Origin: Casimicrobiaceae bacterium
GTDB lineage: Bacteria > Pseudomonadota > Gammaproteobacteria > Burkholderiales > Casimicrobiaceae
Length of the DNA stretch: 64,000 nucleotides
Reading direction: 5' to 3'
Assembly (NCBI GenBank): GCA_036506975.1
Contig: DASXQW010000384.1
Span: forward strand, 125 to 64,124
This document shows, in pieces, positions 29,397 through 53,597 of the stretch. The notes beneath the pieces are model-generated. The model was not told where the DNA came from. It did not search any database and saw only the letters and a program-made list of their open reading frames with translations. The number at the start of each line of letters is the position of its first letter. The first letter of the stretch is position 1. The translations under genes were made by a program, and so were the position numbers.

Positions 29397-29874
29397 CGCG
29401 CATCGTGGCTGCAGCGCCGGCGCCGCTTCGTTGCGTCGCGATGCGATAACACTGCCGCTGCCGCCGCACCTTCGCCCCGAGCTGCGGGGGATTGCAGGCG
29501 AATACTGGCGCGGCGCCGCTCGCGGCGAGTTGCGGCTTCCGCGCTGCCGCAGCTGCGCGTCGCTCACATGGCCGCCGAGAAGCGGCTGCCCGGTCTGCGG
29601 TGCGAGCGAGATCGAGTGGGTGTGCGCGTCCGGCCACGGTGTCGTCCACACGTTTACCGTCGTCAGGCAGGCCGCCGACCCCTACTTCAACGCCAGGCTT
29701 CCTTACGTGGTTGCGATGGTGCAGCTCGACGAAGGCCCGCGTCTGATGAGCAACATCACGGATTGCGACGTCGAGGCCGTTCACATCGGTATGCCGGTCG
29801 CGGTCGCGTTCGTCGACGCCGGCGACGGTCTGGCGGTGCCCGTGTTCACGCCGTCTAGCGCGCCTACGCGATGA
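29374..29874 (+). CDS. DUF35 OB-fold/zinc-ribbon protein (thiolase-fold partner)
   Basis: Zn-ribbon CRSC...CPVC followed by an OB-fold segment (GHGVVHTFTVV...PYVVAMVQLDEGPRLMSNI). ATGA overlap with the downstream thiolase-fold gene. The start is uncertain (GTG 29374 or TTG near 29431). Confidence 0.8.
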   Translation: MSRATNPDAHRGCSAGAASLRRDAITLPLPPHLRPELRGIAGEYWRGAARGELRLPRCRSCASLTWPPRSGCPVCGASEIEWVCASGHGVVHTFTVVRQAADPYFNARLPYVVAMVQLDEGPRLMSNITDCDVEAVHIGMPVAVAFVDAGDGLAVPVFTPSSAPTR

Positions 29875-31026: not shown

Positions 31027-32559
31027 ATGCCCCAGATCCACCTCATCGATGTCACGATGCGCGACGGACACCAGTGCCTGTGGTCGACGCGGATGACCAA
31101 CGCCATGATCGCGCCGGTGCTCGATCTAGCCGACGACGCCGGCTTCCACACGATCGACCTCGTCGGCGGCGCCGTCTTCGACGTGTGCGTGCGCTACCTG
31201 CAGGAGAACCCGTGGGCGCGCATGCGAATGGCCGCGCAGCGGCTGCAGCGCACGCCGATCAACGTCTGGATGCGCGGAGCGAGCCTGTTCACGTTCGAGT
31301 ACTTCCCGCACGACGTGGTCGAGCTGACGATCGCTCATCTCGCCGCGAACGGCGTGCACCATCTGACGACCTACGACGCGCTGAACGACAACCGGAACCT
31401 CGCGGGCTCGGTGCAGGCCGCGCGCTCGGCCGGCATCGGCGTCACCGGCGCCGTCGTGTACACGCTGAGCCCGGTCCATACCGACTCGTATTTCCAGGCC
31501 CGCGCGCGCGAGCTCGTCGCGCTCGGCGTCGATCGGATCTGCCTCAAGGATCCGAGCGGATTGCTCACGCCAGAACGCATACGAACGCTTGCGCCCGCGC
31601 TGCTCGCGGCCGCGCCCGGCATCCCGCTCGAGTTGCATTCGCACTGCCTGTCGGGCCTCGCACCGCACGTGTATCGCGACGCGCTGGACGCCGGCATCAC
31701 GTTCTTCCACACGGCGGTGAGACCTCTTGCCAACGGCGCTTCGCTGCCACCGGCCGAAGACTTCAACGCGACGGCGCTCTCACGCGGGTACCGCACGGGC
31801 ATTCGCGCCGAGCGGCTCGACGAGATGTCGGCGTATTTCGCATGGGTCGCGTGGCGCGAGGGCAAGCCCACGGGAAAACCGGCGACGCTTGATCCGCGGA
31901 TGTACGAGCACCAGGTGCCGGGCGGGATGATCTCGAACCTGCGCACGCAGCTTTGCGCCGCCGGCATCGAGCACCGGCTCGATGAGATCCTCGACGAAGT
32001 CGCGCAAGTACGCAAGGATCTGGGCTATCCGATCATGGTGAGCCCGTTCGCGCAGTTCCTGATCACGCAGGCGACACTCAATGTGGTCCAGGGCGAGCGT
32101 TATTGCATGATCCCCGACGAGCTGCGCAAGTACGCGCTCGGCCATTACGGGCGTGCTGCGGGACCTCTCGCGCCCGAGTTCCTCGAGCGCGCGACGCGAG
32201 GCGAGCCTGTCGTGCAGGAGGCGCCGGCCGAGTTACTCCCGCCCGCGCTGCCACGTCTGCGCGCGGAGCGCGGAGCGCACGCGGGCAACGACGAGATCCT
32301 GCTCGCCGCTTATTACGACGATTCGCTCGTGCGGCCGGTGCTCGCACGTACGCGCGATGCGGTGGCGGGGCTGCGATTCCGCACGACGCCGCTGCGCGAG
32401 CTCGTCGCCTATCTCGCCGGGGCGGCGGACATCGAAAAGCTGCGCGTCGCGATCTCGGGCGTCGATCTTGCGCTCGGCAGCGCCGCTGCGGCGAGCGACG
32501 CGGTGCGACCGGCGATGGCGACGACCGCCCCCGATACTGCGAACGGCAATCTGCGATGA
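31027..32559 (+). CDS. 5S-type carboxyltransferase / oxaloacetate decarboxylase alpha-like (DRE-TIM) protein without a biotinyl domain, copy 1
   Basis: 510 aa. IDVTMRDGHQCLWSTRM, ICLKDPSGLL (Lys-Asp), LELHSHC. No (A/V)MKM biotinylation motif at the C-terminus. Roughly half the residues are identical to the 44760-46235 paralog by eye. Confidence 0.85.
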   Translation: MPQIHLIDVTMRDGHQCLWSTRMTNAMIAPVLDLADDAGFHTIDLVGGAVFDVCVRYLQENPWARMRMAAQRLQRTPINVWMRGASLFTFEYFPHDVVELTIAHLAANGVHHLTTYDALNDNRNLAGSVQAARSAGIGVTGAVVYTLSPVHTDSYFQARARELVALGVDRICLKDPSGLLTPERIRTLAPALLAAAPGIPLELHSHCLSGLAPHVYRDALDAGITFFHTAVRPLANGASLPPAEDFNATALSRGYRTGIRAERLDEMSAYFAWVAWREGKPTGKPATLDPRMYEHQVPGGMISNLRTQLCAAGIEHRLDEILDEVAQVRKDLGYPIMVSPFAQFLITQATLNVVQGERYCMIPDELRKYALGHYGRAAGPLAPEFLERATRGEPVVQEAPAELLPPALPRLRAERGAHAGNDEILLAAYYDDSLVRPVLARTRDAVAGLRFRTTPLRELVAYLAGAADIEKLRVAISGVDLALGSAAAASDAVRPAMATTAPDTANGNLR

Positions 32560-34667
32560 CACAGGTGCACCCGCTCGACGCACTGCTACGACCGCGCAGC
32601 ATCGCGATCGCGGGCGCTTCGGACAATCCGGCCAAGCTCGGCTCGCTTCCGCTGCAATTCCTGCGCAAGTTCGCGTACGACGGCGACATCTACCCCATCA
32701 ACGCCAAGCTCGACGAGGTGATGGGCTGCAAATGCTACCCGTCGCTCGCGAGCATCGGCCGGCCGATCGACTTGATGATCGCCGCGGTCGCCGCCGAACG
32801 CATTCCGGCCCTGCTCGAGGACTCGGTGCCGGGTCAGGTCCGCTTTGCGCTCGTGTTGGCGTCGAACTACGCCGAGGCGGGTGCGGAGGGCATGCGCCTC
32901 CAGCGCGAGCTCGTCGAGCTTGCCAACCGCAAGGGCATCCGTCTCGTCGGTCCCAACTCGGTCGGTATCGTCAATCTGTGGGACAAAGCGGTGGCGTCGA
33001 TCAGCCAGGTGTTCGACCGGACCGATCTCGAGCCGGGGCCGGTGGCGTTCGTCACGCAGAGCGGCGCGGTCGGCACCGCGATCACCGCGCTCGCGCACGA
33101 GCAAGGCCTCGGCATCGGATATTTCATCAGCACCGGCAACGAGGCTGACCTCGAGTTCAGCGACTTCTGCGACGCCTTCATCGACGACCCGAAGGTGACG
33201 GTCATCGCGGGCTATCTCGAGAGCGTGCGCGACGGCGCGAAATTCCAGCGCATCGCGCGCCGGGCGCTCGAGGCGGGCAAGCCGATCGTGCTGGTCAAGG
33301 TCGGGACGACCGACGTGGGGGGTCGCGCCGTGCGGTCACATACCGGCGCGCTTGCCGGTTCGGACGACGTCTACCGAGCGGTTTTCGCGGCTCACGGCGT
33401 CGTGCGCGCCGACGGCATCGAGTCGCTGATCGATTATCTGAAGATGTTCGTCGCGTATCCGCGCACCGCGAACCAGGCGGATACAAGCCACGTAGCGGTG
33501 CTGAGCCACTCCGGCGGCGCCGGCGTCATGATGGCAGACGCCGCAGTGAGCCTGGGCCTCGAGATGCCGCCGCCGTCGCCGGGCCTCGTGCGCACGCTGC
33601 AAGCGCGGCTGCCCGCATACGCGGCGCTCAACAACCCGATCGACATGACAGCGAACGTCATCTTCGATCCGCAGGTGATGGCGGGCAGCGTGCTCGATGC
33701 CGCGCAAAGCGGCGAGTACGACGCGGTCATGCTGTGCGTCAACCTGATCTGGCGGCAGGGCGAAGCGCTCGCCGACGCGCTCGCTGCCGCGCGCAGCGCT
33801 ACAGACCGCATGCTCGCCGTCACCTGGATCGCCGCTCTTCCCGGCCCGCTGCAGCGGCTCGCCCACGCCGGTGTCCCGGTGTTCAGCGACCCAATGCGCT
33901 GCGTGCGCGCCGTGGCCGCGCGTCTTCATTGGGAGCGCGCGCGCCGCGTGGCGCTCGATAGCACGCCCGTCACAGTAGCGCCCAAATCCCGCACGGCCGG
34001 CGCCGACGGCTACCTCGGCCAGCAATCGCTACTCGAGCAGCACGGCATCAACGTCGCGCCGTCGCGGCTCGTAAGCAAGCACGAGGACGCACGTCGTCAA
34101 GCGCAGCAGCTCGGCTATCCCGTCGTCGCCAAGCTCATGGCAGCGTCACTGCCGCACAAGAGCGACATTGGCGGCGTCGTCCTCGGCATCGCCACTGACG
34201 ACGCGCTGGCACGCGCCGTCGACAGGCTGTTCAAAATCCCTTGCGAGGGTCGCGAAGGCGTGCTGATCCAGAAGATGGTCGACGACGCCGACGCGATCGA
34301 GCTCTTCGCCGGGTTCACGCAGGATCGCGTGTTTGGGCCCGTGGTGCTGTTCGGGCTGGGGGGCCTGTTTGTCGAGATCCTGCGCGACGTCGTCATGCGT
34401 CCCGCGCCCTTCGGCATCGACGTCGCCACACGGATGATTCGTGGTGCGCGCTTCTTCCCGTTGTTGCACGGCGCCCGTGGCCGCAAACCGTGCGATCTGC
34501 ACGCGCTCGCGCAACTCCTCGCCCGTGTGTCCACGCTCGCCGCCGCGGAACCGTCGCTGCTCACGCTCGATCTCAACCCCGTGCTCGCTTCGCCGCGCGG
34601 CGTGATCGTGGTCGACTTCAAGCTCGAGCTCCGTGGCCAAATGCTGCGCGAGCGATCGCCCGCCTAA
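32556..34667 (+). CDS. ADP-forming (NDP-forming) acyl-CoA synthetase, fused alpha/beta
   Basis: The real start is MTQVHPLDALLRPRSIAIAGAS (703 aa), with an ATGA overlap upstream. Contains a CoA-binding domain, phosphohistidine loop RSHTGALAGSD and a C-terminal ATP-grasp domain. Confidence 0.85.
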   Translation: MTQVHPLDALLRPRSIAIAGASDNPAKLGSLPLQFLRKFAYDGDIYPINAKLDEVMGCKCYPSLASIGRPIDLMIAAVAAERIPALLEDSVPGQVRFALVLASNYAEAGAEGMRLQRELVELANRKGIRLVGPNSVGIVNLWDKAVASISQVFDRTDLEPGPVAFVTQSGAVGTAITALAHEQGLGIGYFISTGNEADLEFSDFCDAFIDDPKVTVIAGYLESVRDGAKFQRIARRALEAGKPIVLVKVGTTDVGGRAVRSHTGALAGSDDVYRAVFAAHGVVRADGIESLIDYLKMFVAYPRTANQADTSHVAVLSHSGGAGVMMADAAVSLGLEMPPPSPGLVRTLQARLPAYAALNNPIDMTANVIFDPQVMAGSVLDAAQSGEYDAVMLCVNLIWRQGEALADALAAARSATDRMLAVTWIAALPGPLQRLAHAGVPVFSDPMRCVRAVAARLHWERARRVALDSTPVTVAPKSRTAGADGYLGQQSLLEQHGINVAPSRLVSKHEDARRQAQQLGYPVVAKLMAASLPHKSDIGGVVLGIATDDALARAVDRLFKIPCEGREGVLIQKMVDDADAIELFAGFTQDRVFGPVVLFGLGGLFVEILRDVVMRPAPFGIDVATRMIRGARFFPLLHGARGRKPCDLHALAQLLARVSTLAAAEPSLLTLDLNPVLASPRGVIVVDFKLELRGQMLRERSPA

Positions 34668-34676
34668 CCTCTGATC

Positions 34677-35963
34677 ATGGAACTGCTGCTTCTCGTCGGC
34701 TCGCTGGTGCTGCTGATCCTCGTCGGCGCCCCGATCGGAGTGACGATGGCGGTGCTTCCGATGATCTATATCGCCTTCACTGGCGATTTGCCACTGAGTA
34801 CCGTGCCGTACCAGATGTATGAAGCGCTCGCGCACGCGCCACTGGTCGCGGTCCCGTTCTTCCTGCTGACCGGCGAACTGATGAACAGCGGTCAGATCAC
34901 CGAGCGGCTGCTCGTGCTCAGTCGCGAGCTGGTCGGTCGCTTTCGCGGCGGGCTCGCTCAGGTCACGATCATGGTGAGCATGCTGTTCGCGGGAATGAAC
35001 GGCTCGGTGGTCGCCGACACGGCGGCCGTGGGCAGCGTGCTGATTCCGCCGATGAAGAAAGCCGGCTATTCCGCCGCGTTCGCGGCCGCCATTACTGCGG
35101 TGGCAGGAACGATCGGCGGCATCATTCCGCCGAGCATCGCGATGATCCTGCTCGCGAGCGGGCTCGGCCTTTCGGTCGGCGGATTGTTCGCCGGCGGCAT
35201 CCTCCCGGGCGTGCTGATCGGGCTCATGCTGATGGCGGTGACGTACGTGATCGCGACCCGCCGCGGCTACGAGCGGCTCGAGGAGCCGTTCAGCCTGCGC
35301 AAGCTGTGGCTTGCCTTTCGCGGCGCGATGCTGCCGCTGACGATCCCGATCATCATCGTCGGTGGCATGGTGTTGGGCGTGTTCACGTCGACCGAGGCCG
35401 GTGCGGTCACCGCGATCGTTGCGGCGCTCATCAGCGCAGTTGCCTACCGCACGCTCAACCGGTCGAACGTTCGCTCGGTGCTCACAAAGTCGGTCGAGAT
35501 GACGGCGTCGGTGTTCATCATCATCGCCGCCGCCGGCCCCTTCAGCTGGCTGCTGAACCAGATCGGTGCACTGCAGGGCTTGGGCGACTGGCTGACGGGG
35601 TTCGCAGGCGATCGCGTCATGTTCATCACTGCGCTGGTCGGCTTCATCTTCGTCGCAGGCATGATCATGGATGCCGTCGCCAACATCATCGTGCTCGGCC
35701 CGACGCTCGTGACCGCCTGCGTTGCCGCCGGCTTTCCGCCGATCCAGGCCGGTCTCGTCGTGACCGTCGGCTTCCTGATGGGAACGGTGACGCCGCCGGT
35801 CGGCATCAGCTATTTCATGGCTTCTTACATCGCCGACGAACGGCTCGAGCGTGTGGCGGTTGCGCTCATTCCGTTCATCCTCGTCGAAGTGGTCGCGCTC
35901 GTGCTGATGCTGCTCTGGCCCGGCCTCACGATGTGGGTTCCGAGCCTGATGGGATTGACATGA
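34677..35963 (+). CDS. dctM: TRAP transporter large permease
   Basis: 428 aa, polytopic, with typical DctM sequence (FFLLTGELMNSGQITERL, MFAGMNGSVVADTAA). Confidence 0.9.
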   Translation: MELLLLVGSLVLLILVGAPIGVTMAVLPMIYIAFTGDLPLSTVPYQMYEALAHAPLVAVPFFLLTGELMNSGQITERLLVLSRELVGRFRGGLAQVTIMVSMLFAGMNGSVVADTAAVGSVLIPPMKKAGYSAAFAAAITAVAGTIGGIIPPSIAMILLASGLGLSVGGLFAGGILPGVLIGLMLMAVTYVIATRRGYERLEEPFSLRKLWLAFRGAMLPLTIPIIIVGGMVLGVFTSTEAGAVTAIVAALISAVAYRTLNRSNVRSVLTKSVEMTASVFIIIAAAGPFSWLLNQIGALQGLGDWLTGFAGDRVMFITALVGFIFVAGMIMDAVANIIVLGPTLVTACVAAGFPPIQAGLVVTVGFLMGTVTPPVGISYFMASYIADERLERVAVALIPFILVEVVALVLMLLWPGLTMWVPSLMGLT

Positions 35964-36475
35964 ACGGCGACGCTACACGTGCGCTGCTCGCGTTCGAGCG
36001 CCGCGCGCAAGGATTCCTGGAGATCCTGTGCAGCGTTTTGCTCGTCGCGATGGTGCTTGTCACCGGCTACACGGTCATCATGAGATACGCGTTCCACAAT
36101 CCGCCATTCTGGGGCGACACGCTGACTATGTTCTGCAACATCTGGCTCGTGCTGATCGCATACGCGATCTCGGTTCGCAAGCGCGATTACATCGCCATGC
36201 AAGGCGTCTACGGGCTGCTGCCGTCGGGCTGGCCTTTCGCGCTCAACTTTATCTGGAACGTGATGACCGCTCTCTTCGGCGCATTCCTCTTCTGGTTCGG
36301 CATCGGCGCCGCGATCAACGTGCCGGGAAGCTATTGGGAGCTGGGCGGGTTGCCCAACAAGGTGCCGATGGCGATCATGCCGATCGCTGGCGCGCTGATC
36401 ATGTTGGCAGCGCTGCGCAACGTCGCAGAGGACCTCGCCGTTCGTCGCGCGAAACGCGAATTGCGGGGGCCGTGA
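35960..36475 (+). CDS. dctQ: TRAP transporter small permease
   Basis: 171 aa with 4 TM segments. ATGA overlap with dctM. The order M-then-Q is atypical. Confidence 0.75.
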   Translation: MNGDATRALLAFERRAQGFLEILCSVLLVAMVLVTGYTVIMRYAFHNPPFWGDTLTMFCNIWLVLIAYAISVRKRDYIAMQGVYGLLPSGWPFALNFIWNVMTALFGAFLFWFGIGAAINVPGSYWELGGLPNKVPMAIMPIAGALIMLAALRNVAEDLAVRRAKRELRGP

Positions 36476-36476
36476 C

Positions 36477-37121
36477 GTGATCCTCCTCGGTCGCTATCGC
36501 TCACCGTTTACCCGCCGCGTGGCGATCAGCCTGCGCTGCCTCGGCATCGACTACGAGCACCGGCCGATCACCGCCTGGACGCAGCTTGACGACGTCCGTG
36601 CCGTCAATCCGGTGGGCCGCATCCCGGCGCTGATCCTCGATTCCGGAGAGCGGCTCTTCGACAGCGCGGCCATTCTCGACTACCTCGATCACCTGGTGGG
36701 CCCCACTCGCGCGCTCGTGCCGGCAGACGAGCCCGAGCGGCGCCAAGTGTTGCGCGTGGTTGCCTGCGCGATGGGCGCACTGGAAAAAGTCGTCGCCGCG
36801 CTGTACGAGCACACGATGCGTCCGGCCGCGAAGGTGCATCAGCCGTGGATCGCGCACAATGAGGCGCAGGCGCGCGGCGGCATCGAATGGCTCGACGCGC
36901 GACCAGGCGAGCGCTGGCTCGCGGCGGACCGCCTGACGCAGGCGGACGTCACGACGACGGCGATGTTCGACTTCACGCGCATCGTCAACCCCGGGCTGGT
37001 CCCGGCAGGCGCGTACCCTCGGCTCGACGGGTTGTCGGCGTATTGCAACACGCTGCCGGCGTTCGCCGAAACGCAGCCGACCAGCGCAGTGGATCGCGCC
37101 AATCCCGGACTGCCGGCGTAG
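36477..37121 (+). CDS. Glutathione S-transferase family protein
   Basis: 214 aa. GTG start 1 nt after the dctQ stop. N-terminal thioredoxin-like motif (YRSPFTRRVAISL, RIPALILDSGERLFDSAAILDYL). Confidence 0.8.
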   Translation: MILLGRYRSPFTRRVAISLRCLGIDYEHRPITAWTQLDDVRAVNPVGRIPALILDSGERLFDSAAILDYLDHLVGPTRALVPADEPERRQVLRVVACAMGALEKVVAALYEHTMRPAAKVHQPWIAHNEAQARGGIEWLDARPGERWLAADRLTQADVTTTAMFDFTRIVNPGLVPAGAYPRLDGLSAYCNTLPAFAETQPTSAVDRANPGLPA

Positions 37122-37126
37122 CCGCC

Positions 37127-37933
37127 TCAGCCCACCGGCTGTCCTTCGACGTCGGCCTGCCTGCTCTCGAACACCTGCTGACGGAGCCAGCGCTTGACCT
37201 CGGCGGCGAGGTGCACGATCGCGGGGTCGGTCGCATCGCGCGGACGCGCGAATTCGACGGACTTGATCTCTTCGACGCGCCCCGGCCGCGGCGCCATGAT
37301 CGCGATGCGGTCGGACAGCTTGATCGCCTCGTCGATGCTATGGGTGACGAAAATCACCGTCTTCGGCTCGCGCTGCCAGATTTTGAGCAGCTCGTCCTGC
37401 ATGTACTCGCGCGTCTGGATGTCGAGCGAGCCAAACGGCTCGTCCATCAGCAGGATCGAAGGGTTGACGGCGAGTGCGCGCGCGATGCTCACGCGCTGGC
37501 GCATGCCGCCGGAGAGCTCTCGCGGGTAGCGCGACTCGAATCCGCGCAGGCCGACGAGGCCGATATAATGCTCGGCGATCCGCCGCTGCTCGGCTTCCGG
37601 CAGGCGTTTGCGCTGCAGCCCGTAGCAGATGTTGTCGCGCACCGTGTACCAGGGAAAGAGCGCGTATTCCTGGAACACGACGGCGCGCTCCCATCCCGGC
37701 TCCGCGATCGGCTCGCCGCCGACGCGAAGCTCGCCGCGCGACGGCTGTTCGAAACCCGCGAGAAGGTTGAGCAACGTCGTCTTGCCGCAGCCGCTTGGAC
37801 CGACGATCGAAAAGAACTCGTTGTTCTCGACGCAGAAGGTGACGTCGAGCAGCGCGAGCAGCGGCTCGCCCTGCATCGAGAAGTGCACCTTGCTGACGTT
37901 GTCGACGCTGACCTGCGACGTGCGCGCGCTCAT
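37127..37933 (-). CDS. NitT/TauT-family ABC transporter ATP-binding protein
   Basis: Walker [10 protein letters not shown], signature [15 protein letters not shown], Walker B LLMDEP. Confidence 0.9.
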
Positions 37934-37943
37934 GGCCGTCGAT

Positions 37944-38828
37944 CTACTTGCCGTGGTACCACGGCATCGCGATGCGCATCGCCTGCCGCATCAGGAAGTC
38001 GAGCACCAGACCGAGAACGCCGATCAGCACCATGCCGAGCAGGATGTAATCGCTGCGGAACAGCGTGCGCGCATTGTTGATCATGAAGCCGAGCCCGCTC
38101 GGCGCCGCGACCAGCTCGCCGGCGACCAGCGCCATCCAGCCGATGCCGAGCCCGATGCGCACGCCGGTGAAGATCTGCGGCAGCGCCGCCGGCAGCACGA
38201 CGGTGCGGAACAGCTCGCCACGGCGCGCGCCGAGGCTCAAGCCCGCGCGAACGAGATACGTGTCGACGTCGCGCGCGCCCGCCATCGAGTTCAGCACGAC
38301 GGGAAAGAACGCTGCGAGGAAGATGATGTAGACGATCTGCATGTCGCCGATGCCGAACCACAGGATCGACAGCGGAATCCAGGCGAGCGGCGGAATCGGC
38401 CGTATGAACTCGAGAACCGGGTCGACAGCGGCGCGGAAGCGCGCCGACCATCCCATCGCTAGACCGAGCGGTACGCCGAGCGCCGTCGCTGCGCCGACGG
38501 CGGCCAGCACGCGCTTGAGGCTGTCGAGGATGTGGGTGAAGAGCACGCCGCGCTGGAACAAGTCGATGGCGGCGGACACGACCGCGGTGGGCGGCGGCAT
38601 CATCACATCGAGCTGCGGATTGATCCGCTGTCCGTAGACGCTGATGACTTCCCAAACGACGACGAATGCCGCAAGCAGCCACCAGTGACCGATGCGTACG
38701 AGCGCACGGCGCCAGCGTGGCTGCGGCGGCGCCACCATCGACGCAGTAATCCGCGCCACCGCGTCGGGCGCCGGCGCCGGACCGGGCTGCGTCGCGGTCC
38801 GCGCGGGCGTCTCGACGACGTGTTGCAT
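37944..38828 (-). CDS. NitT/TauT-family ABC transporter permease
   Basis: 294 aa with a BPD_transp_1 pattern similar to tauC ([19 protein letters not shown]). Confidence 0.85.
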
Positions 38829-38837
38829 GGCGCTCGC

Positions 38838-40214
38838 TTACGGCGTGTACGTCTTGCCCATGAACGTCCACGGCTTCTTCAACTCGCCGGGCTCGGGAAA
38901 CGTAGCCGGTCCGTTCAGCAAAGCGGCCGCGTACGGCTTGTAGGGCAGGTTGCCGACGCCGCCGAAGTCCTTCGGCAGGAACGGCGGGCGTTCGGGCACG
39001 GCCCAGCCGAGCTTGTCGAACGTCGCCTTCATGTAGCTGGTGCGGCGCACGTTCTTCCAGTCGTCGTTCGTCACCTTGTTCTTCGACGCGCCGGTCTCGA
39101 ACGCCCAGTCGCTGATCCGCGACTCCTCCTTCGGCCAGATGCCATTCGCATCGTCGAACGGGTAGTACACAGTCGGCTTCGGCCAGAACAGGTAGCGCTC
39201 AGACATCTTGGTCAACAGCGGCCGCCCGAGCCGCCCATAGGCCGCCTGGCTCAACAGCGCATCGATCGCCTTGTCCGGATTCGCTTTCGCCCACAGTACC
39301 GCTTCGATGAACGCGTCGGTGAGCAGTTGCACGACGTCGGGCGCGTTGTCCTCGATCTCCTGTCGCGCGTAGTAGTAGCCGCTGTAGATGTAATACGGAT
39401 CGAGCGGCTCGAGCAGTCGCGTGACCTTCAGCACTTCGGTCGAGTACGAGACGTGCGGCTCCCAGATCGTGAAGACGTCGATGCCTTTCGGACCCGAAGC
39501 GAGATCGCCGGGTGGCGTACTGCGCAACGTATAGTCCTCGTCCTGCTTGAGCCCCAGATAGTGCGCCGCCGCGATGAAGCCGAAGTGATTCGTCGAGCCG
39601 GTCGTCGTACCGACGACAGCAGGGCGCTTCAGCACCTTCTGCCCCTTGAGATCGGCGAGGCTTTTGAGCGGCGAGTCCAGCGGAACCGTCGCCGCGTGCG
39701 TGAGACCGGGCGAATGCGTGGCGACCGCGCGCGTGGGCACCTTGTTGCTGAGCAGCGCAAGCACGCCGAGCGCGCCGGTGTTCGCGATCTGGATGCGCCC
39801 GGGGATGAACGCCTCGTTCGAGAAGCCGGCGGCAACGAACGTCTGCCATTGAATCTCGATGCCGCGCTTTTCGAGCAGCTTCTGCGTCTGCAGCGTGTTG
39901 CCGATCATCTCCTCGCTCGCCCACACGACGATCCACGCGGCGTTGAGCGGCCACCAACCCTTGCTTTGCAGCCACTGCTTGGACTTCGCCGAGATCTGCT
40001 CGTACGGCAGCGGCCAGCCCCAATCGGTGAACTTCTGCGAGGTGACCGCCGGGGCCGCGGTCTGCGCGCTCGCCGCGCTCGCGGCAGCGAGATCGCCGAG
40101 CAGCAGACCGCCGGCGGCCTTGACGACGGTACTCAGGAACTCACGGCGTGGCAGCGCGGTGGCGGGTTCAGCCGGCACGATCGCGCCGCTGTCGTGCGAT
40201 TTCGAAGCATCCAT
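38838..40214 (-). CDS. NMT1/TauA-like periplasmic binding protein with Tat-type signal
   Basis: The real start is MDASKSHD... (458 aa) after an AAGGAGGA RBS, inside the 836-aa track ORF. Twin-arginine motif PRREFLSTVVKAAGG. Confidence 0.75.
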   Translation of the reverse strand: MDASKSHDSGAIVPAEPATALPRREFLSTVVKAAGGLLLGDLAAASAASAQTAAPAVTSQKFTDWGWPLPYEQISAKSKQWLQSKGWWPLNAAWIVVWASEEMIGNTLQTQKLLEKRGIEIQWQTFVAAGFSNEAFIPGRIQIANTGALGVLALLSNKVPTRAVATHSPGLTHAATVPLDSPLKSLADLKGQKVLKRPAVVGTTTGSTNHFGFIAAAHYLGLKQDEDYTLRSTPPGDLASGPKGIDVFTIWEPHVSYSTEVLKVTRLLEPLDPYYIYSGYYYARQEIEDNAPDVVQLLTDAFIEAVLWAKANPDKAIDALLSQAAYGRLGRPLLTKMSERYLFWPKPTVYYPFDDANGIWPKEESRISDWAFETGASKNKVTNDDWKNVRRTSYMKATFDKLGWAVPERPPFLPKDFGGVGNLPYKPYAAALLNGPATFPEPGELKKPWTFMGKTYTP

Positions 40215-40351
40215 GGCGTCTCCTCCTTGCTCAGTGGGTTTTGATGTAGCTTCGGCTGCTAACGGCTGCCATGACGAAGCCGCGCGCGAACCGGACGAAT
40301 TTTTTGCATGAAAGCTCGAGCAGCGATCCAATATAGCGCAATCGGATACTC

Positions 40352-41101
40352 CTAGCGCGTGAGATAGCCCCCGTCCACCGGAATCGTCGCCCCGTTGACG
40401 TAACCGAGCGCATCCGAGGCGAGCAGCGCGACCGTGGACGCGATATCGTCCGGTACGGCGAAACGGCCAGCCGGGATTGCGGCAAGCACATCGCGACGGC
40501 GCTCGGGCGTGAGCAGCGGGCCCGTCATCCCGGTCTCGGTCACGCCGGGTGCGATCGCATTGACGTTGATGCCATGCGGCGCGAGCTCGCGCGCGAGGCC
40601 CTTCGTGAGGGCGACCACACCCGCCTTCGTCGTGCCGTACAGCACGTTGCCGAACGAGCCGCCACCCTTCGCCGCGGATACCGAAGCAATGTTGACGATC
40701 TTGCCGTAGCGTTGCGCGATCATCGCCGGCAGCACCGCCTTGCAGCAGTAATAAACGCCCGAGAGGTTCACGCGGCAGACATCGTCCCAGTCGGCGATGG
40801 TCGCCTCGGCGACTGGCCCCGTCTTCAGAATCCCTGCATTGTTGACCAGGATATCGATGCGGTTGCGCTCGCGCACGACCCGCCCGACCGCGTCGGCCGC
40901 CGCACTGGCGACGCCGACGTCGAGCGCGATCGGATAACCAAGCCCCCGACACTCGGCAGCGACTTTGCTCGCCGCAGCGACATTGGTGTCGCCCAGGTAC
41001 ACGGTGCAGCCGTGGACGGCGAGTGTGGTCGCAATGGCGGCACCGATGCCGCCGCCGGCACCGGTCACCAGCGCGATCTTCCCGCCGAGTTTCAAATCCA
41101 T
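40352..41101 (-). CDS. Short-chain dehydrogenase/reductase (FabG-like)
   Basis: TGAGGGIG, NNAG, S...YGTTK catalytic motif. Confidence 0.9.
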   Translation of the reverse strand: MDLKLGGKIALVTGAGGGIGAAIATTLAVHGCTVYLGDTNVAAASKVAAECRGLGYPIALDVGVASAAADAVGRVVRERNRIDILVNNAGILKTGPVAEATIADWDDVCRVNLSGVYYCCKAVLPAMIAQRYGKIVNIASVSAAKGGGSFGNVLYGTTKAGVVALTKGLARELAPHGINVNAIAPGVTETGMTGPLLTPERRRDVLAAIPAGRFAVPDDIASTVALLASDALGYVNGATIPVDGGYLTR

Positions 41102-41113
41102 CGAAGCTCCTGT

Positions 41114-41947
41114 TCAGTGGACCGGAGGCAGCCCGAGAATCTGCCGCGCTTCCGCCGGCGTGGCCGGCCGGCGGCCGTAGTGCGGACACGCATCGACGAT
41201 CTTGCGCACCAGCTCGGCGTTGCTCGCCGCGAGCCGGTCGGGCTCGATGCGCAGATTGTCCTCGAGTCCCGTGCGGCAATGCCCGCCCGCCTCCAAGCAC
41301 CACTGGTTGACCTCCCATTGATGGCGGCCGACGCCTGCGGCGACCCACGTCGCACCGGGCAGCACCGCCTCGAGCTCCGAGCGCAGGAAGTCGAAGATCG
41401 TGCGGCGCGCAGGCATCGCATTCGGCACGCCCATGACGAACTGCACGTGCGGCCGCACGTTGACGAGTCCCTTCTTCACGAGATTCGCCGCGTTATAGAG
41501 CATCGCGAGATCGAACACCTCGATCTCCGGCTTGACACCGTGTTCGAGCATCGTTTGAGCGAGCGCCGCGATAAAATCGGGCGGGTTCTCGTAGATGCCG
41601 TTCGGGAAGTTGACCGAGCCGGTTGCCAGCGACGCCATATCGGGCTTCAGGTGCAGCATCGCACCGCGCATCGCGTGCTCGCGGCCGCGGCCGCCGGTGG
41701 AGAACTGCACGATCATGCCGGGGCAGTGCTTGCGCACGCCCTCGCACACGCGCGCGTAGAGTTCCGGATCGGAGCCGGGCGACTCGTCGGGATTGCGCAC
41801 GTGGATGTGCACGAGCGACGCGCCCGCCTCGAATGCCTCGTGCGTCGATGCGATCTGCTCTTTGGGCGTCACCGGCACCGCCGGGTTGTCCTTCTTGCGC
41901 GGCAATGCGCCGGTGATCGCGACCGTGATGATGACGGGCTCCGTCAT
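41114..41947 (-). CDS. BKACE-family beta-keto acid cleavage enzyme (3-keto-5-aminohexanoate cleavage enzyme-like, DUF849)
   Basis: 277 aa. IITVAITGALP, zinc-ligand context LVHIHVRNPDE and RTGLEDN. Confidence 0.9.
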   Translation of the reverse strand: MTEPVIITVAITGALPRKKDNPAVPVTPKEQIASTHEAFEAGASLVHIHVRNPDESPGSDPELYARVCEGVRKHCPGMIVQFSTGGRGREHAMRGAMLHLKPDMASLATGSVNFPNGIYENPPDFIAALAQTMLEHGVKPEIEVFDLAMLYNAANLVKKGLVNVRPHVQFVMGVPNAMPARRTIFDFLRSELEAVLPGATWVAAGVGRHQWEVNQWCLEAGGHCRTGLEDNLRIEPDRLAASNAELVRKIVDACPHYGRRPATPAEARQILGLPPVH

Positions 41948-42807
41948 GCGGCAATCCGTTTGGTTCGTGCCGCCTGCGTCTTCGGAAGCGGCGCCGGGAC
42001 GCTCGCGCCCGCCGGCACCAGCATGGCCGCGATCGCTTGAGCCGCTTCACGCATCGCCGGCAGAAAGGTATAGCTCCTTTTCAGCGTCATCCGCGGCGCC
42101 GGCCCGTGCACGGCAATCGCCGCGCACATCCGTCCGCGCGGATCGCGCACCGGCACGGCGAGGCACACCGATCCGTCGAGGAACTCGCCGGCGTCGGTGG
42201 CCACGCCGGTCGCGCGGACCTTCGCGAGCTCTCGCTCGAGCGCATCGACGCTCACGATCGTGCGCTCGGTGTAGCGCGCCAGCGGCCCCGGGCCGAGCAA
42301 CCGCCGCCGCTGTTCGTGCGACATGTCGGAGAGCAGCAGCTTGCCGCTCGCCGTGCAGTGCAACGGCACCCGCGAGCCGGCCTTCATGTGCAGACGCACG
42401 TTCGCCGATGTCTCGACGCGATCGACATAGACGACCTCTCGGCCGTCGAGCATCGTGAAGTTGCACGTCTCGCCGATCGCTTCGACCAGCCGCGCGAGGA
42501 TCGCGTGCCGCTCACGTCGCCGCGGCCAGCGCATCTGCACGGCGAGCGACAGCGTGCACAGGCGGGCGCCGATCGCGTAGCGCTTGTCGTGCACTTCACG
42601 CTCGACGAGCCCGCCACACATCAAGAGCCGCAGGATCCGGTACACGGTGGGCTTCGGCAGCCCGGTCGCGCGCGTCAGCTCCTCGAGCGTGGGCGGCTCG
42701 TCGGCCGCCGCAATCCGTTCGAGCAGCGCAAAGGCACGTAGCGCCGACGACGGGGCCCCGTCAGGACCGGGGGACACGGCACGTAATTTCATTGAGCGAA
42801 ATGCCAC
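41944..42807 (-). CDS. IclR-family transcriptional regulator
   Basis: wHTH LEELTRATGLPKPTVYRILRLL plus an IclR effector domain. ATGA overlap with the BKACE gene. The start is GTG 42807 or ATG 42792. Confidence 0.9.
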   Translation of the reverse strand: MAFRSMKLRAVSPGPDGAPSSALRAFALLERIAAADEPPTLEELTRATGLPKPTVYRILRLLMCGGLVEREVHDKRYAIGARLCTLSLAVQMRWPRRRERHAILARLVEAIGETCNFTMLDGREVVYVDRVETSANVRLHMKAGSRVPLHCTASGKLLLSDMSHEQRRRLLGPGPLARYTERTIVSVDALERELAKVRATGVATDAGEFLDGSVCLAVPVRDPRGRMCAAIAVHGPAPRMTLKRSYTFLPAMREAAQAIAAMLVPAGASVPAPLPKTQAARTKRIAA

Positions 42808-42916
42808 GTTTCATTATTGCAATGTTTTTCCTGCCGTGCAATGATGGCCGCGGTCGGCGCGATGCCGGCGGCGGGACGTTGGCGCGCGCCCGCCACGCCT
42901 CTTCCCGGAGTTTCGC
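42808..42916. promoter_or_regulatory. Divergent control region (iclR operon / biotin-carboxylase operon) with repeated TGCAATG and TTTCATT motifs
   Basis: GTTTCATTATTGCAATG-N14-GTGCAATGATGG contains the 8-bp palindrome ATTGCAAT. A second TTTCATT copy lies just inside the 5' end of iclR. Confidence 0.4.
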
Positions 42917-43399
42917 TTGGCCCACGACAATCTCACGTACGACGACCTGCTGCGAATCGTCGAGCTGATCAAGACTTCGGAGCAGTTTTCCGAGTTCCGG
43001 CTGAAGATCGGCGAGATCGAGGTCGAGCTGCGCCGCCGTGGTGCGGCGGGCGCGCCGGCGCCACTAGCGTCGTCGAGCCCGCCGGCGCCGGTTGCGCAGC
43101 CCGCCGAGCCGGTGCCGGCGCGCGAGGCGCCGAGCTGGCCCGAAGGCTCGATCGTCATCCGCTCCCCGATGGTCGGAACGTTCTATCGCGCCCCCGAGCC
43201 GGGCGCGCGGCCGTTCATCGATGTCGGCCAAGCCGTGGAACCCGACACGACGGTGTGCATCATCGAGGTCATGAAGCTGATGAACTCGATTCCCGCCAGC
43301 GCATGGGGGACGGTCATGCAAATCCTCGTCCAGGACGCGGCCGCGGTCGAAGCCGGGCAGCCGCTGATCGTGCTGCAGCCGGAAGCCGAGCCGGAATGA
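42917..43399 (+). CDS. Biotin carboxyl carrier protein (AccB-like)
   Basis: 160 aa with a TTG start. Ala/Pro-rich linker. Biotinyl-Lys motif IIEVMKLMNSIPA. Confidence 0.85.
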   Translation: MAHDNLTYDDLLRIVELIKTSEQFSEFRLKIGEIEVELRRRGAAGAPAPLASSSPPAPVAQPAEPVPAREAPSWPEGSIVIRSPMVGTFYRAPEPGARPFIDVGQAVEPDTTVCIIEVMKLMNSIPASAWGTVMQILVQDAAAVEAGQPLIVLQPEAEPE

Positions 43400-44763
43400 A
43401 GACCACCACACGTCCTTTTCGCCGCATCCTCGTCGCGAACCGCGGCGAAATCGCTCTTCGGATCATTCGCGCCTGTCACGAGGTTGACATCGAGGCGATC
43501 CAGGCTTACTCCGAGGCTGATCGCGATTCGCTTCCGGTACGGCTCGCCGACGGCTCGATCTGCGTCGGACCGCCGCCGCCGAGCCAGAGCTACCTCAGGA
43601 TCGATGCGTTGATCGCCGCGGCGCGCATGGCGAAGGCCGACGCGATCCACCCCGGCTACGGTTTCCTCTCCGAGAACGCGGCGTTTGCCCGGGCGTGCGA
43701 CGACGCCGGCATTGTGTTCATCGGTCCGCCCGAGCGCGCGATTGCGCTGATGGGCGACAAGGTGGCTGCGCGGCGAATGGCGGCGGAGGCAGGGGTGCCC
43801 GTCACGCCGGGATCGCCGGGAACGCTTCCGCACGCCGCGGCCGCGCGCGAGGTCGCAGCCACACTCGGTTACCCGGTGCTCCTCAAGGCGGCCGCCGGTG
43901 GGGGCGGGCGCGGCATGCGGGTGGTGCACGACGAAGCGCAGCTCGCGGCGCGCTTCACCGACGCCGCACGCGAGGCGCAAGCGGCGTTCGGAGACGGCGG
44001 CCTTTACGTCGAGAAGTTTCTCGAGCGCGTCCGCCACGTGGAGATCCAGGTGCTTTCCGACGGCGAGACCGTGTTGCACCTCGGCGAGCGCGACTGCTCG
44101 ATCCAGCGCCGCAATCAGAAGCTCGTCGAGGAAAGCCCGTCACCCGCGCTCGACGACGCCATGCGCGCGCGGATGGGCGAGGCGGCGGTGCGTGTCTGCC
44201 GGCATGTCGGATATCGCAGCGCCGGCACGATCGAGTTCGTCGTCGACGCTGCGAGCGGGGCCTTCTACTTCATGGAAATGAACACGCGTGTGCAGGTCGA
44301 ACATCCGGTCACCGAACTCGTCACCGGCATCGATATCGTCAAGGCGCAGATTCGCATCGCGCAGGGCGAGCGGCTGCAGATCGCGCAGGGCGACGTGCGG
44401 CTCACCGGCCACGCGCTCGAATGCCGGATCAACGCGGAGGATGCCGCGCGCGACTTCGCGCCCTCGCCCGGCGAGGTGCGCGCGCTGCGCCTGCCCGGGG
44501 GACCCGGCATCCGCATCGACTCGCATCTGTTCGCCGGGTATCGTGTTCCGCCCTACTACGATTCGCTGCTCGCGAAGGTGATCGCCTGGGGCCGCGACCG
44601 CGACGAAGCAATCGCGCGCATGCGCCGCGCCATCGGCGAGATGCAAGTCGAAGGCGTGCACACGACGCTGGCGTTCCACGCGCGGCTGCTCGCCGACGAG
44701 CGCTTCCGCCGCGGCGACGTGCATACGCGTTTTGTCGAAGACGAGCTTGCGAGGACAGCATGA
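43396..44763 (+). CDS. Biotin carboxylase (AccC-like)
   Basis: The real start is MKTTTRPFRRILVANRGEIALRIIRAC (455 aa), with an ATGA overlap with the BCCP gene. Also KAAAGGGGRGMRVV and MEMNTRVQVEHPVTE. Confidence 0.95.
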   Translation: MKTTTRPFRRILVANRGEIALRIIRACHEVDIEAIQAYSEADRDSLPVRLADGSICVGPPPPSQSYLRIDALIAAARMAKADAIHPGYGFLSENAAFARACDDAGIVFIGPPERAIALMGDKVAARRMAAEAGVPVTPGSPGTLPHAAAAREVAATLGYPVLLKAAAGGGGRGMRVVHDEAQLAARFTDAAREAQAAFGDGGLYVEKFLERVRHVEIQVLSDGETVLHLGERDCSIQRRNQKLVEESPSPALDDAMRARMGEAAVRVCRHVGYRSAGTIEFVVDAASGAFYFMEMNTRVQVEHPVTELVTGIDIVKAQIRIAQGERLQIAQGDVRLTGHALECRINAEDAARDFAPSPGEVRALRLPGGPGIRIDSHLFAGYRVPPYYDSLLAKVIAWGRDRDEAIARMRRAIGEMQVEGVHTTLAFHARLLADERFRRGDVHTRFVEDELARTA

Positions 44764-46235
44764 AGGCACGCAACGACGCCTCCGGAAGCGCTCCGCGCTT
44801 CGATTTCATCGACGTCACGCTGCGCGATGCGCACCAGTGTCTGTGGTCGACGCGGATGACCACCGCGATGATGACGCCGATCCTCGGCGCGATCGACCGC
44901 GCCGGTTATTCGTTCATCAACATCCTCGGCGGCGCCGTGTTCGACGTGTGCGTGCGCTACCTGCAGGAGAACCCGTGGGAACGCGTCGGCCTGCTCTGCG
45001 AGCGGCTCGCCACACCGTGCGACGGCCTCACCCGCGGGCAGAGCCTGTACACATTCGAGCTCTTTCCCGACGACATCGTCGCGCTCAACTCGCACGCGCT
45101 CGCCCGTCGCGGCATCGAGGTACTGACTGTCTACGACGCGCTGAACGACAACCGCAACATCGCCTCGTCGGTGCATTCGGGGCACGAGGCGGGGATGAAG
45201 GTCAACGCGATGATGACCTACACGCTGTCGCCGGTGCACACCGACGCCTACTATGTCGATTGCACGCGCGAGTTGGTCGCGCTCGACGTCGACTTCATCT
45301 CGATCAAGGATCCGACCGGCCTGCTCACTCCCGAGCGCGGCCGCACGCTGTTCCCGGCCGTCGTGCACGCCGCGGGCGGCATTCCGCTGCAGCTGCATTC
45401 GCATTGCCAGTCGGGGCTCTCGCCCGAGGTCTACGAGATCGCGATGCAAAGCGGGTTCCGGCTCGGCTATACGGCGAGCGAGCCGCTCGCCAATGGCGCC
45501 TCGTTGCCGGCGACCGAGGACGTGCTCGCGCGTGCGCGCCGGCTCGGTTTCGCGACGTCGATGAACGACGCGGCGCTCGCCGAGATCGCGGGCTACTTCA
45601 ACTGGGTGTGCGAGCGCGAGGCCAAGCCGCGCGGCGAGATCGCCGCCTACGACCCCGCGCTCTACGAGCACCAGATCCCGGGCGGAATGATCTCGAATCT
45701 GCGTTATCAGCTGGAGACGATGAAGCTCGAACACCGGCTGCCCGAGATCCTCGAGGAGGTTGCGCGCGTGCGGCAGGACCTCGGTTACCCGATCGTCGTG
45801 AGCCCGTTCGCGCAGTACATCGTCACGCAGGCGACGCTGAACGTCGTGCAGGGCGAGCGCTACAAAACGATCCCCGACGAGATCCGCAAGTACGCGCGCG
45901 GCTACTATGGCCGGCTCGCCGCGAAACCTTCGGACGAGTTCCTCGAGCGCGCGAACATCCGCGACTCGGAGTACGTGACCGAGGCGCCTGCAGCGCACCT
46001 CGAGCCGTGGGTCCCGCGCCTTCGTGCCGAGCTCGGATCGGCGGCGGGCGATGAAGACGTCCTGCTCGCGGCGTTCTATGCTCGCAAGCTGATCGAGCCG
46101 CTGCGCAATCCGGCGCCCGAATGCCGCTTTCGCACCACGCCGCTCACCGAGCTCGTCGGCTTCCTCGCGAGACGCACCGACATCGGCTACGCGCGCATCC
46201 GTTTCGCGGGCGCCGATATGATGGTTTCGGCGTAG
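44760..46235 (+). CDS. 5S-type carboxyltransferase (DRE-TIM) without a biotinyl domain, copy 2
   Basis: Start MKARNDASG (491 aa), with an ATGA overlap with the biotin carboxylase gene. IDVTLRDAHQCLWSTRM, ISIKDPTGLL, LQLHSHC. Shares an identical run of about 40 nt (TTCGACGTGTGCGTGCGCTACCTGCAGGAGAACCCGTGGG) with copy 1. Confidence 0.85.
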   Translation: MKARNDASGSAPRFDFIDVTLRDAHQCLWSTRMTTAMMTPILGAIDRAGYSFINILGGAVFDVCVRYLQENPWERVGLLCERLATPCDGLTRGQSLYTFELFPDDIVALNSHALARRGIEVLTVYDALNDNRNIASSVHSGHEAGMKVNAMMTYTLSPVHTDAYYVDCTRELVALDVDFISIKDPTGLLTPERGRTLFPAVVHAAGGIPLQLHSHCQSGLSPEVYEIAMQSGFRLGYTASEPLANGASLPATEDVLARARRLGFATSMNDAALAEIAGYFNWVCEREAKPRGEIAAYDPALYEHQIPGGMISNLRYQLETMKLEHRLPEILEEVARVRQDLGYPIVVSPFAQYIVTQATLNVVQGERYKTIPDEIRKYARGYYGRLAAKPSDEFLERANIRDSEYVTEAPAAHLEPWVPRLRAELGSAAGDEDVLLAAFYARKLIEPLRNPAPECRFRTTPLTELVGFLARRTDIGYARIRFAGADMMVSA

Positions 46236-53535: not shown

Positions 53536-53597
53536 TCGGGCGCCAAGCGGCGGATCGGGGTACCAGTGGCAGGCAAGCGCATGCTCGGAGAACCGGC

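Follow-up and report, generated by a model that had tools for sequence, protein, structure and literature searches.

Pyruvate-carboxylase-type biotin enzymes are commonly viewed as assemblies of fixed composition whose substrate is pyruvate, oxaloacetate or 2-oxoglutarate, and the transferases of this DRE-TIM fold add CO2 next to a carbonyl to give a β-keto acid. In the actinobacterial acyl-CoA carboxylases one subunit, AccA3, which unites biotin carboxylase (BC) and biotin carboxyl carrier protein (BCCP), serves AccD4/5/6; we know of no case of carrier sharing by several DRE-TIM transferases. The mycobacterial long-chain acyl-CoA carboxylase (bioRxiv 10.64898/2026.02.06.704326) is an example of these enzymes. 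Here we describe a stretch of 64,000 nucleotides from a Casimicrobiaceae bacterium (contig DASXQW010000384.1; hereafter the window) with two genes for carboxyltransferases without a BCCP domain, CT1 (31027..32559, + strand) in operon A and CT2 (44760..46235, + strand) in operon C, both assigned by the Pfam domain PYC_OADA, alignments and a tree. On balance, CT1 and CT2 both seem to function as carboxyltransferase subunits, belonging to a single biotin enzyme system of modular, multi-subunit build, and the use in trans by CT1 of the single BCCP and BC encoded in operon C appears to be the most economical and most likely reading of the gene arrangement.

CT1 (510 aa) and CT2 (491 aa) align end to end in BLASTP, with 276 of 485 positions identical (57%), 70% positives and 6 gaps, where a preliminary description made from the letters alone had judged about half of the residues identical by eye. 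Their genes are 66% identical in nucleotides overall and 56% at third positions, and the synonymous sites are saturated; by these measures the two are true, anciently diverged paralogues. The identical run of about 40 nt reported in the same description is exactly 40 nt long (31177-31216 and 44940-44979) and codes for the peptide FDVCVRYLQENPW, which is invariant across the transferase family. Given this invariance, the third-position GC content of the source genome (GC3 ~85%) and the third-position identity of 56%, the run is explained by constraint and codon bias. Recent gene conversion was considered as its origin and rejected, since third-position identity is that low and the run spans an invariant peptide.

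The metal and lysine contexts of the DRE-TIM fold, already noticed in both copies, were recovered as MRDGHQC and LRDAHQC, LKDPSG and IKDPTG, and LHSHC in both, for CT1 and CT2 respectively. In the HMMER alignment they land on Asp17, Lys178, His207 and His209 of Vibrio cholerae OadA (2nx9), which we take to be the OadA metal ligands, the numbering fitting the alignment. Judged against PycB, OadA and 5S, both proteins retain Arg12/Asp13/Gln16, Arg83, Lys174 and His204/His206 as well as the Ser/Thr of the PGGM(I/L)(S/T)N motif. Hence CT1 keeps all metal and substrate residues, and the loss of essential catalytic residues envisaged for copy 1 in the preliminary description was not found. At the 181 positions identical in PycB (5ks8), OadA (2nx9) and 5S (1rqb), CT1 retains 92, CT2 96 and an alphaproteobacterial relative 103, while dN/dS values against orthologues (0.13-0.17 for CT1, 0.10-0.12 for CT2) indicate purifying selection on both; on these counts CT1 is no more degenerate than CT2. 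The PYC_OADA domain scores 113-115 bits in the two proteins and HMGL-like scores weakly (28.1 bits in CT1 and 20.3 in CT2, cut-off 29). Furthermore, Pfam gave no Biotin_lipoyl match in either, in agreement with the similar non-biotinylated tails described before, and the C-terminal tail is conserved in both, T453, P455, L456 and E458 being invariant across 14 family members.

The best structural relative of both proteins is PycB of the Methylobacillus flagellatus PycA/PycB enzyme (5ks8; E = 2.5e-92 for CT1 and 2.5e-83 for CT2), which has a separate BC subunit, as here, and with which the PGGMISNL motif is shared. However, PycB is ~600-620 aa long with a C-terminal BCCP domain, whereas CT1 and CT2 end in a family-specific tail, and RDxHQS, GGAT, RGQNLLGYRHY and KDM are changed to RDxHQC, GGAV, RGxSLxTFExF and KDP beside the catalytic motifs, in CT1 and CT2 as family-wide. 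The Propionibacterium shermanii transcarboxylase also joins a DRE-TIM carboxyltransferase without a biotinyl domain (5S, 1rqb) to a separate small carrier (1.3S), an arrangement indicated here by gene context, and 5S agrees with both window proteins in its metal and substrate residues (HMMER E = 1e-69 for CT1 and 4e-63 for CT2). Unlike that system, the contig of the window has no 12S-type crotonase-fold partner (Carboxyl_trans matches lie only on contigs C329, C90, C158 and C242), a BC is present and coupled to CT2 by an ATGA overlap, and roughly half of the positions on which 5S, PycB and OadA agree have been altered. The V. cholerae OadA has the same fold and metal ligands, but its pump subunit OadB (PF03977) has no match in the genome assembly of the window (386 contigs, 96% complete). 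In the Enterococcus-type oxaloacetate decarboxylase complex the biotin carrier is presumably a separate protein, as in the window. The closest parallel for one carrier and carboxylase serving several paralogous transferases of different specificity is the actinobacterial AccA3/AccD system, though AccD proteins are crotonase-fold enzymes of acyl-CoAs, while the window transferases are of the DRE-TIM pyruvate carboxylase type with carrier and carboxylase as separate proteins.

As to family placement, CT1 and CT2 fall in a distinct, undescribed clade, separate from PycB, OadA and 5S. A tree built from 91 family sequences places the PycB, OadA and 5S references on one side of a branch with an SH-aLRT of 100, a weak test with 3 references only. 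Both proteins remain below every NCBIfam equivalog cut-off (PycB, OadA, 5S and pyruvate carboxylase), with scores short by a factor of ~2 or more: 379/365 for CT1/CT2 against 734 for NF010644, 304/282 against 1182 for NF010645, 391/384 bits against 756.5 for TIGR01108 (OadA), 371/357 against 718 for NF008985 (OadA) and 292/272 bits against 827 for NF008984 (5S). The only model that they pass is the domain-level PycB model NF006761 (423, cut-off 402). Consequently the earlier label of 5S-type proteins and its pyruvate/oxaloacetate framing were not upheld. The clade signature comprises RDxHQC, GGAVFDVC, RGxSLxTFE, KDP[ST]G, HSHC and the tail RFRTTPLxELV, each resting on residues that do not vary among 14 members, CT1 and CT2 being two of these, and no fused biotinyl domain or tail MK[ML] motif was found among the 92 family sequences examined. 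In metagenomes the family counts 3324 proteins at E <= 1e-30, all under generic annotation only, and our literature search found no paper describing this transferase clade or gene set. By this placement, CT1 and CT2 represent a known kind of enzyme in a modular form that is widespread but uncharacterised. The change of 85-89 of the 181 positions invariant in PycB, OadA and 5S argues for another substrate than pyruvate, and the substrates of CT1 and CT2 are probably not simply pyruvate and oxaloacetate.

The inventory of the source genome was then compared with the window. Genome-wide, no PYC_OADA protein other than CT1 and CT2 is encoded. Three biotin carboxylases are encoded, namely that of the window, AccC adjoining AccB on contig C386, and a third on contig C329 that has a crotonase-fold transferase as its neighbour and is assigned to an acyl-CoA carboxylase on that account; the two outside the window thus each have their own partners. 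The free-standing BCCPs are that of the window and AccB only. Two carboxyltransferases with a single BC/BCCP pair in the window, as described before, is therefore the correct count, and the operon-C BCCP is the only dedicated carrier for both. A PEP carboxylase is also present in the genome, so that anaplerosis needs neither transferase gene. A housekeeping pyruvate carboxylase made of CT2, BC and BCCP was accordingly judged unlikely, given the PEP carboxylase, the failed curated models and the tight linkage of these genes to those of BKACE, a short-chain dehydrogenase (SDR) and an IclR-type regulator.

In operon C, the gene of the free-standing, AccB-like BCCP (42917..43399, +; Biotin_lipoyl 67.9 bits; TIGR00531 130.8 bits, cut-off 115.2; biotinylation motif CIIEVMKLM) overlaps that of the BC (43396..44763, +; Biotin_carb_N, CPSase_L_D2 and Biotin_carb_C), which in turn overlaps CT2, both overlaps being ATGA. 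CT1 is ATGA-coupled to an acyl-CoA synthetase instead, so it holds that only copy 2 is coupled to a BC and a free BCCP with the EVMKLM motif. The minus strand carries the IclR-type regulator (41944..42807; HTH_IclR and IclR_C), divergent from the BCCP gene, the BKACE (41114..41947; Pfam BKACE 327 bits; NF053568, 3-oxoadipate:acetyl-CoA acetyltransferase, 466.7 bits, cut-off 350) and the SDR (40352..41101; adh_short and adh_short_C2). BKACE enzymes convert a β-keto acid and acetyl-CoA into an acyl-CoA and acetoacetate; to our knowledge, their physiological substrates are largely unknown.

Gene neighbourhoods were examined in 80 loci from species-representative genomes annotated with the window proteins, and neighbours were counted in the 41 loci where each flank extends for 6 kb or more. 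The transferase is accompanied by a free BCCP in 39 of these 41 loci, by a BKACE in 30, by an SDR in 26 and by a BC in 25; BCCP occurs without BC in 14 loci and BC without BCCP in none. Seven loci hold two or three transferase paralogues with a single BCCP and at most one BC, and in three of the loci examined (L017, L028 and L052) three transferases go with one BCCP while the locus itself lacks a BC. In total, ~90 related loci were seen in Beta-, Alpha- and Gammaproteobacteria, Actinobacteria and Rokubacteria; cultured carriers are Trinickia mobilis DHG64 (L014), Polynucleobacter sp. AP-Kaivos-20-H2 (L059), which has no dedicated BC, and Roseovarius halotolerans CECT 8110 (L086). Around CT2-type transferases the conserved core consists of IclR, BKACE, BCCP, CT and SDR, often with BC and TauE, and genes like those of glutamate mutase (glm) stand outside it. 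Linkage to BKACE spans transferase clades (42-88% identity) and BKACE subfamilies (36-87%), including loci G102:C1 and L093; by this linkage the conserved functional partner of CT2 is the BKACE, which the preliminary description had left unconnected. Glutamate mutase had also been considered as this partner, and was rejected because glm-like genes lie near a transferase in few loci and belong with the CT1-type module. In the 2.3-Mb genome of Polynucleobacter (G003) and in genome G004, BCCP, CT2 and BKACE are present and the BCs genome-wide are limited to an AccC-sized one and a long one of the acyl-CoA-carboxylase type, so a BC must act there in trans. Indeed, since dedicated BCs are often missing, the use of parts in trans would be normal for this transferase family.

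Operon A differs in its enzymes. Upstream of CT1 lie genes for a 172-aa conserved protein, U172, with a predicted tandem ferredoxin-like (ABM/HmoB-like) fold (28878..29396, +), a DUF35 protein with a zinc ribbon and an OB fold of the ChsH2 C-terminal type (29374..29874, +; OB_ChsH2_C 85 bits, zf-ChsH2 44.9 bits), and an SCP-x-type thiolase-fold protein with Gly at the position of the nucleophilic Cys (29871..31004, +; Thiolase_C_1 191 bits; NF004811 482 bits, cut-off 421), the last two genes overlapping by ATGA. Downstream, the coupled gene encodes an ADP-forming (NDP-forming) acyl-CoA synthetase (ACS; 32556..34667, +; CoA_binding_2, Succ_CoA_lig and ATP-grasp_5), replaced in L028 by an AMP-forming ligase. 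In the thiolase-fold protein NIGGAS aligns to the C-A-S-G of Cys-containing homologues, and Gly-Gly stands at the acyl-accepting Cys, as in the best PDB match (4u4e). Aldolase-type Ltp2 proteins likewise lack the thiolase nucleophilic Cys, and for the protein of operon A a lyase/aldolase role, together with its DUF35 partner, is more probable than that of a thiolase. A CoA ligase, a Cys-less thiolase-fold protein, a DUF35 protein and an ABM-fold protein are always found in the CT1 module, which suggests CoA activation followed by a C-C cleavage that would yield or consume the oxo-acid of CT1.

Several observations connect the two operons. In the tree CT1 groups with the transferases of L006, L015 and L007 in a small clade whose sister is the CT2 clade of Betaproteobacteria, and thiolase-linked transferases as a whole are polyphyletic. 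In all loci with close CT1 orthologues (83-86% identical; L006, L015 and L089/L090), operon A lies next to, or co-travels with, the IclR|BCCP-BC(-CT2) set. L006 and L015 form one contiguous cluster, CT2 <- BC <- BCCP | IclR -> (BKACE) -> SDR -> ABC -> U172 -> DUF35 -> thiolase-fold -> CT1 -> ACS, and L089/L090 repeat the layout of the window with suf genes instead of sulfoacetate genes on the outer flanks. Hence the BCCP, which is 10 kb from CT1 in the window, shares a gene cluster with the CT1 orthologue in L006, L015 and L089. Among 301 sampled genomes of the same order, the CT1 type occurs in one, that of the window, which also has CT2. Moreover, CT1-type transferases have a BCCP, and some also a BC, inside their own module in L093, L061, L007 and L036/L037; in L061 the order is BCCP-BC-CT-DUF35-thiolase-ACS on one strand. 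In the more distant record covering L091-L094, where CT-Y is 64% identical to CT1, the placement of the BC is reversed with respect to the window: the CT1-type module of L093 (GntR -> ACS -> BCCP -> SDR -> degenerate BCCP -> BC -> GST) holds the only BC of the record, and the BKACE-linked transferase has a BCCP only. Furthermore, glm-like, MR_MLE and quinone oxidoreductase (QOR) genes, found behind CT2 in the window, sit with CT1-type genes in L007, L091 and L037, pointing to one module split over both window operons. Of the two possibilities offered in the preliminary description, the borrowing of BC and BCCP in trans by CT1, linking operons A and C, is thus supported by synteny, co-travel and the loci with several transferases and one BCCP, while that of a biotin-independent lyase is disfavoured by the retained residues, the count of 92 against 96 of the 181 positions and the dN/dS of CT1.

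In the mechanism that we propose, the AccB-like BCCP would be carboxylated by the adjoining BC, and carboxy-BCCP would then serve any transferase at hand, in cis for CT2 and in trans for CT1, so that operons A and C would be parts of a single functional unit. Each transferase would add CO2 beside the carbonyl of an oxo-acid to give an oxaloacetate-like β-keto acid. The product of CT2 would react with acetyl-CoA to give an acyl-CoA and acetoacetate, cleaved by the BKACE; in its simplest form, the logic of the CT2 module would be that the SDR makes or removes the keto group, BC, BCCP and CT2 carboxylate, and the BKACE cleaves. The product of CT1, or the oxo-acid that CT1 receives, would belong to a CoA-dependent branch with the acyl-CoA synthetase and the pair of Cys-less thiolase-fold and DUF35 proteins, a branch that would also include the ABM-fold protein and a non-canonical GlmE-like B12 mutase.

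A precedent for BKACE chemistry on the product of a pyruvate-type carboxylase is Burkholderia ObcA, whose BKACE-like domain converts acetyl-CoA and oxaloacetate into acetoacetate. The window BKACE matches ObcA (ObcA/Obc1, 4nna and 5iky) with E = 4e-12; unlike ObcA it is a standard BKACE of 277 aa, closest to 3no5 and the NCBIfam 3-oxoadipate:acetyl-CoA acetyltransferase model, and, unlike in the Burkholderia oxalate system, no ObcB-like hydrolase was seen. Pyruvate and longer oxo-acids, levulinate for example, are all candidate substrates of CT2, since the window BKACE passes the 3-oxoadipate model and the BKACE-like ObcA acts on oxaloacetate.

A number of results weigh against the shared system. 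The two window operons are under different regulators, GntR and IclR, and no shared operator motif was found between their promoter regions, so co-expression of operons A and C is not assured. In L093 separate BCCPs accompany the individual transferases; the window BCCP is only 45% and 40% identical to these two, and carrier specificity may matter. Concerning the proposed chemistry, the Cys-less thiolase fold is unfavourable to a simple ligase-then-thiolysis route in the CT1 branch. Among the clade-specific residues none consistently separates thiolase-linked from BKACE-linked transferases, hence different substrates for CT1 and CT2 are unproven. Finally, in a genome of the same order as that of the window (G071, L095-L099), BCCP-less transferases of a sister clade are present as five paralogues, with 43-45% identity to CT2 by tblastn; no BCCP or BC was found within about 8 kb of them, and carrier-independent relatives of the family may exist.

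The same evidence bears on other explanations. CT1 could have lost the need for a carrier and work as a biotin-independent, metal-dependent DRE-TIM decarboxylase or lyase, its only partners being the CoA ligase and the thiolase-fold/DUF35 pair encoded in operon A. Operon A without BCCP or BC, the coupling of CT1 to a CoA ligase rather than to a BC, the HMGL-like score of CT1 just under the cut-off (28.1 against 29) and the G071 paralogues without a nearby BCCP would fit this view. Yet the HMGL-like score of CT2 is lower still (20.3), the canonical positions are as conserved in CT1 as in CT2, the family-specific tail is kept in both copies, and none of the examined loci with a CT1-type or thiolase-linked transferase is without a BCCP, so that we regard such an enzyme as decidedly improbable. 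It is even less probable, and in our view very much so, that CT1 is served by the housekeeping AccB/AccC of contig C386 instead of the operon-C proteins. Genomes with BCCP and CT2 but no dedicated BC must use AccC, and cross-talk is plausible, since the window BCCP passes the acetyl-CoA carboxylase BCCP model TIGR00531; nevertheless, BC-less loci still keep their own BCCP (39/41 loci have one), implying a need for the carrier of the family, with which CT1 orthologues always co-travel.

Two further readings leave the carrier shared and alter what is done with it. CT1 and CT2 may be isozymes for the same reaction and substrate, under GntR and IclR respectively and both on one BCCP, an unlikely possibility. 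The polyphyly of the thiolase-linked transferases agrees with it, as do the 18 positions that split CT1 from the betaproteobacterial CT2 clade: at 7 of them, including the active-site-adjacent Ser177, Leu208 and Phe88, CT1 has the residue that is commonest in the other family members, which are mostly BKACE-linked and alphaproteobacterial. Opposed to this are the age of the paralogues (57% identity, synonymous saturation), their different enzymatic contexts, each conserved separately, and two Gln near the catalytic motifs of CT2 (RGQS and HSHCQ), which are Ala and Leu in CT1. Somewhat less likely again is a transcarboxylase, in which CT1 and CT2 would perform the half-reactions of an ATP-independent carboxyl shuttle through the shared BCCP, from a β-keto acid donor to a second oxo-acid, with the BC for priming or back-up only. 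A transferase with a free BCCP is indeed the 5S/1.3S architecture of P. shermanii, BC is absent from 14 of the 39 BCCP-containing loci, and L017, L028 and L052 combine three transferases and one BCCP with no BC in the locus. However, most loci have a single transferase with a BCCP and would be unable to shuttle, and BC is present wherever both modules are fully seen (window, L006, L089 and L093). Moreover, the L028 and L052 genomes have Biotin_carb_C matches on the same contig, about 12 and 20 kb from the transferase genes, in the form of one incomplete match within a 406-aa frame plus three fragments.

The window and the related loci point to something other than fixed assemblies: these transferases form a widespread, unstudied clade that always has a separate carrier, often lacks its own BC, reaches two to three copies per carrier in some loci and is wired to BKACE. 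Identification of the substrate would assign functions to three orphan families, namely these transferases, a large subgroup of BKACE and the set of thiolase-fold, DUF35 and ABM-fold proteins, and could offer a new ATP-dependent carboxylation for pathway design. It would also show whether several DRE-TIM transferases can share one carrier in the manner of the actinobacterial acyl-CoA carboxylases. More speculatively, and we hold this to be unlikely, the genes may represent a new modular biotin enzyme with several transferases on one free BCCP and an optional BC, feeding or exchanging carboxyls between the BKACE and the CoA ligase/thiolase-fold/DUF35 routes of an undescribed B12-dependent dicarboxylate pathway. 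There, the GlmE-like mutase would rearrange a non-amino substrate, for example 2-oxoglutarate to 3-methyloxaloacetate, which a transferase would interconvert with 2-oxobutyrate; a non-amino substrate is proposed because the amino-group-binding Glu171 and Arg149 are lost. If true, this route would be the 2-oxo-acid analogue of the propionyl-CoA carboxylase/epimerase/methylmalonyl-CoA mutase route.

The genes of this mutase lie downstream of CT2 on the plus strand and were assigned with Pfam: a GlmS-like B12-binding subunit (47019-47453), MutL (47458-48876) and the GlmE-like mutase (about 48839-50350), followed by an MR_MLE enolase-superfamily enzyme (50394-51515) and an MDR/quinone oxidoreductase (51491-52498). 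The GlmE-like protein passes TIGR01503 (431.6 bits, cut-off 390.1). Compared with Clostridium cochlearium GlmE (1cb7_B), it keeps Arg66, Arg100, Tyr177 and Tyr181, and it carries Arg149Leu, His150Thr and Glu171Leu; these changes (Thr or Ser at position 150) are common to the window protein and those at L007:13805-15187 and L037:3274-4653. Glutamate mutase binds its substrate with three arginines and the amino group with the active-site Glu171, and the pattern suggests a B12 mutase acting on a substrate without an amino group. Further downstream, a probable TctC/TctB/TctA tripartite tricarboxylate transporter (52567..55691, +) was judged from translations only, and TctC genes close related clusters in L006 and L007.

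Directly after CT2, a TauE/SafE-family anion permease is encoded (46246..46968, +; Pfam TauE 95.4 bits), and a TauE-type gene follows CT2-type genes in many related loci. Between the operons, an ABC importer on the minus strand (37127..40214) comprises an ATPase (37127-37933), a permease (37944-38828) and a 458-aa SsuA/TauA-like binding protein (38838-40214; weak OpuAC Pfam match), the first two identified only through Pfam-annotated genes at equivalent positions in L006. The nearest structures of the binding protein are SsuA and TauA (E 4e-8 to 1e-6), and it presumably binds the pathway substrate. Its conservation is unusually high, with 75-92% identity between homologues from Beta- and Alphaproteobacteria and from a metagenome-assembled genome of Rokubacteria, and it accompanies either module. 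A sulfonate substrate, suggested by TauE, the SsuA/TauA-like protein and the flanking taurine, sulfoacetate and sulfite genes, is a weakened idea, as the equivalent unit in L089 is flanked by unrelated suf genes.

Upstream of operon A and divergent from it lies the GntR/FCD-type regulator gene (26933..27760, −), 82% identical by tblastn to a gene of L089 with PF00392/PF07729; a regulator of this type also heads the CT1-type module in L007 and L091. Operon A itself begins with the TRAP solute-binding protein DctP (27826..28869, +; Pfam DctP 171.5 bits), and the intergenic region between these two genes contains an inverted repeat, TATAC-N10-GTATA (27755-27790), a plausible GntR/FadR-type operator. 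After the acyl-CoA synthetase come the TRAP large permease DctM (34677..35963, +; Pfam DctM 349.7 bits) and a glutathione S-transferase-family protein (GST; 36477..37121, +; GST_N_3 and GST_C_2), which is the conserved end of the CT1-type module, in the equivalent place in L089 and after the BC in L093. U172 had no match in Pfam, NCBIfam or PDB sequence searches; its AF2 model (mean pLDDT 92.8) resembles HmoB and ABM monooxygenase-like folds in Foldseek (TM 0.6-0.68, a generic ABM/ferredoxin-like fold), and the motif EH(L/M)PxLL..P.W.GC is conserved. U172 homologues flank transferase paralogues in L006, L007, L017, L028, L036, L037 and L052, with two copies around one transferase paralogue in L017 and L028, and both copies are frameshifted in L052.

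Two observations were made in other genomes. In G102, of the same family as the genome of the window, CT-BCCP-BC-BKACE are found on contig C1 (L100) and BCCP-CT2...BKACE without BC on C14 (L101), another case of fewer carboxylases than transferases. Directly upstream of the BC in L093, a BCCP-like gene (L093:10787-11287) has IKIIRRTK in place of IEVMKLMN; it would encode a non-biotinylatable paralogue, reminiscent of the plant BADC proteins.

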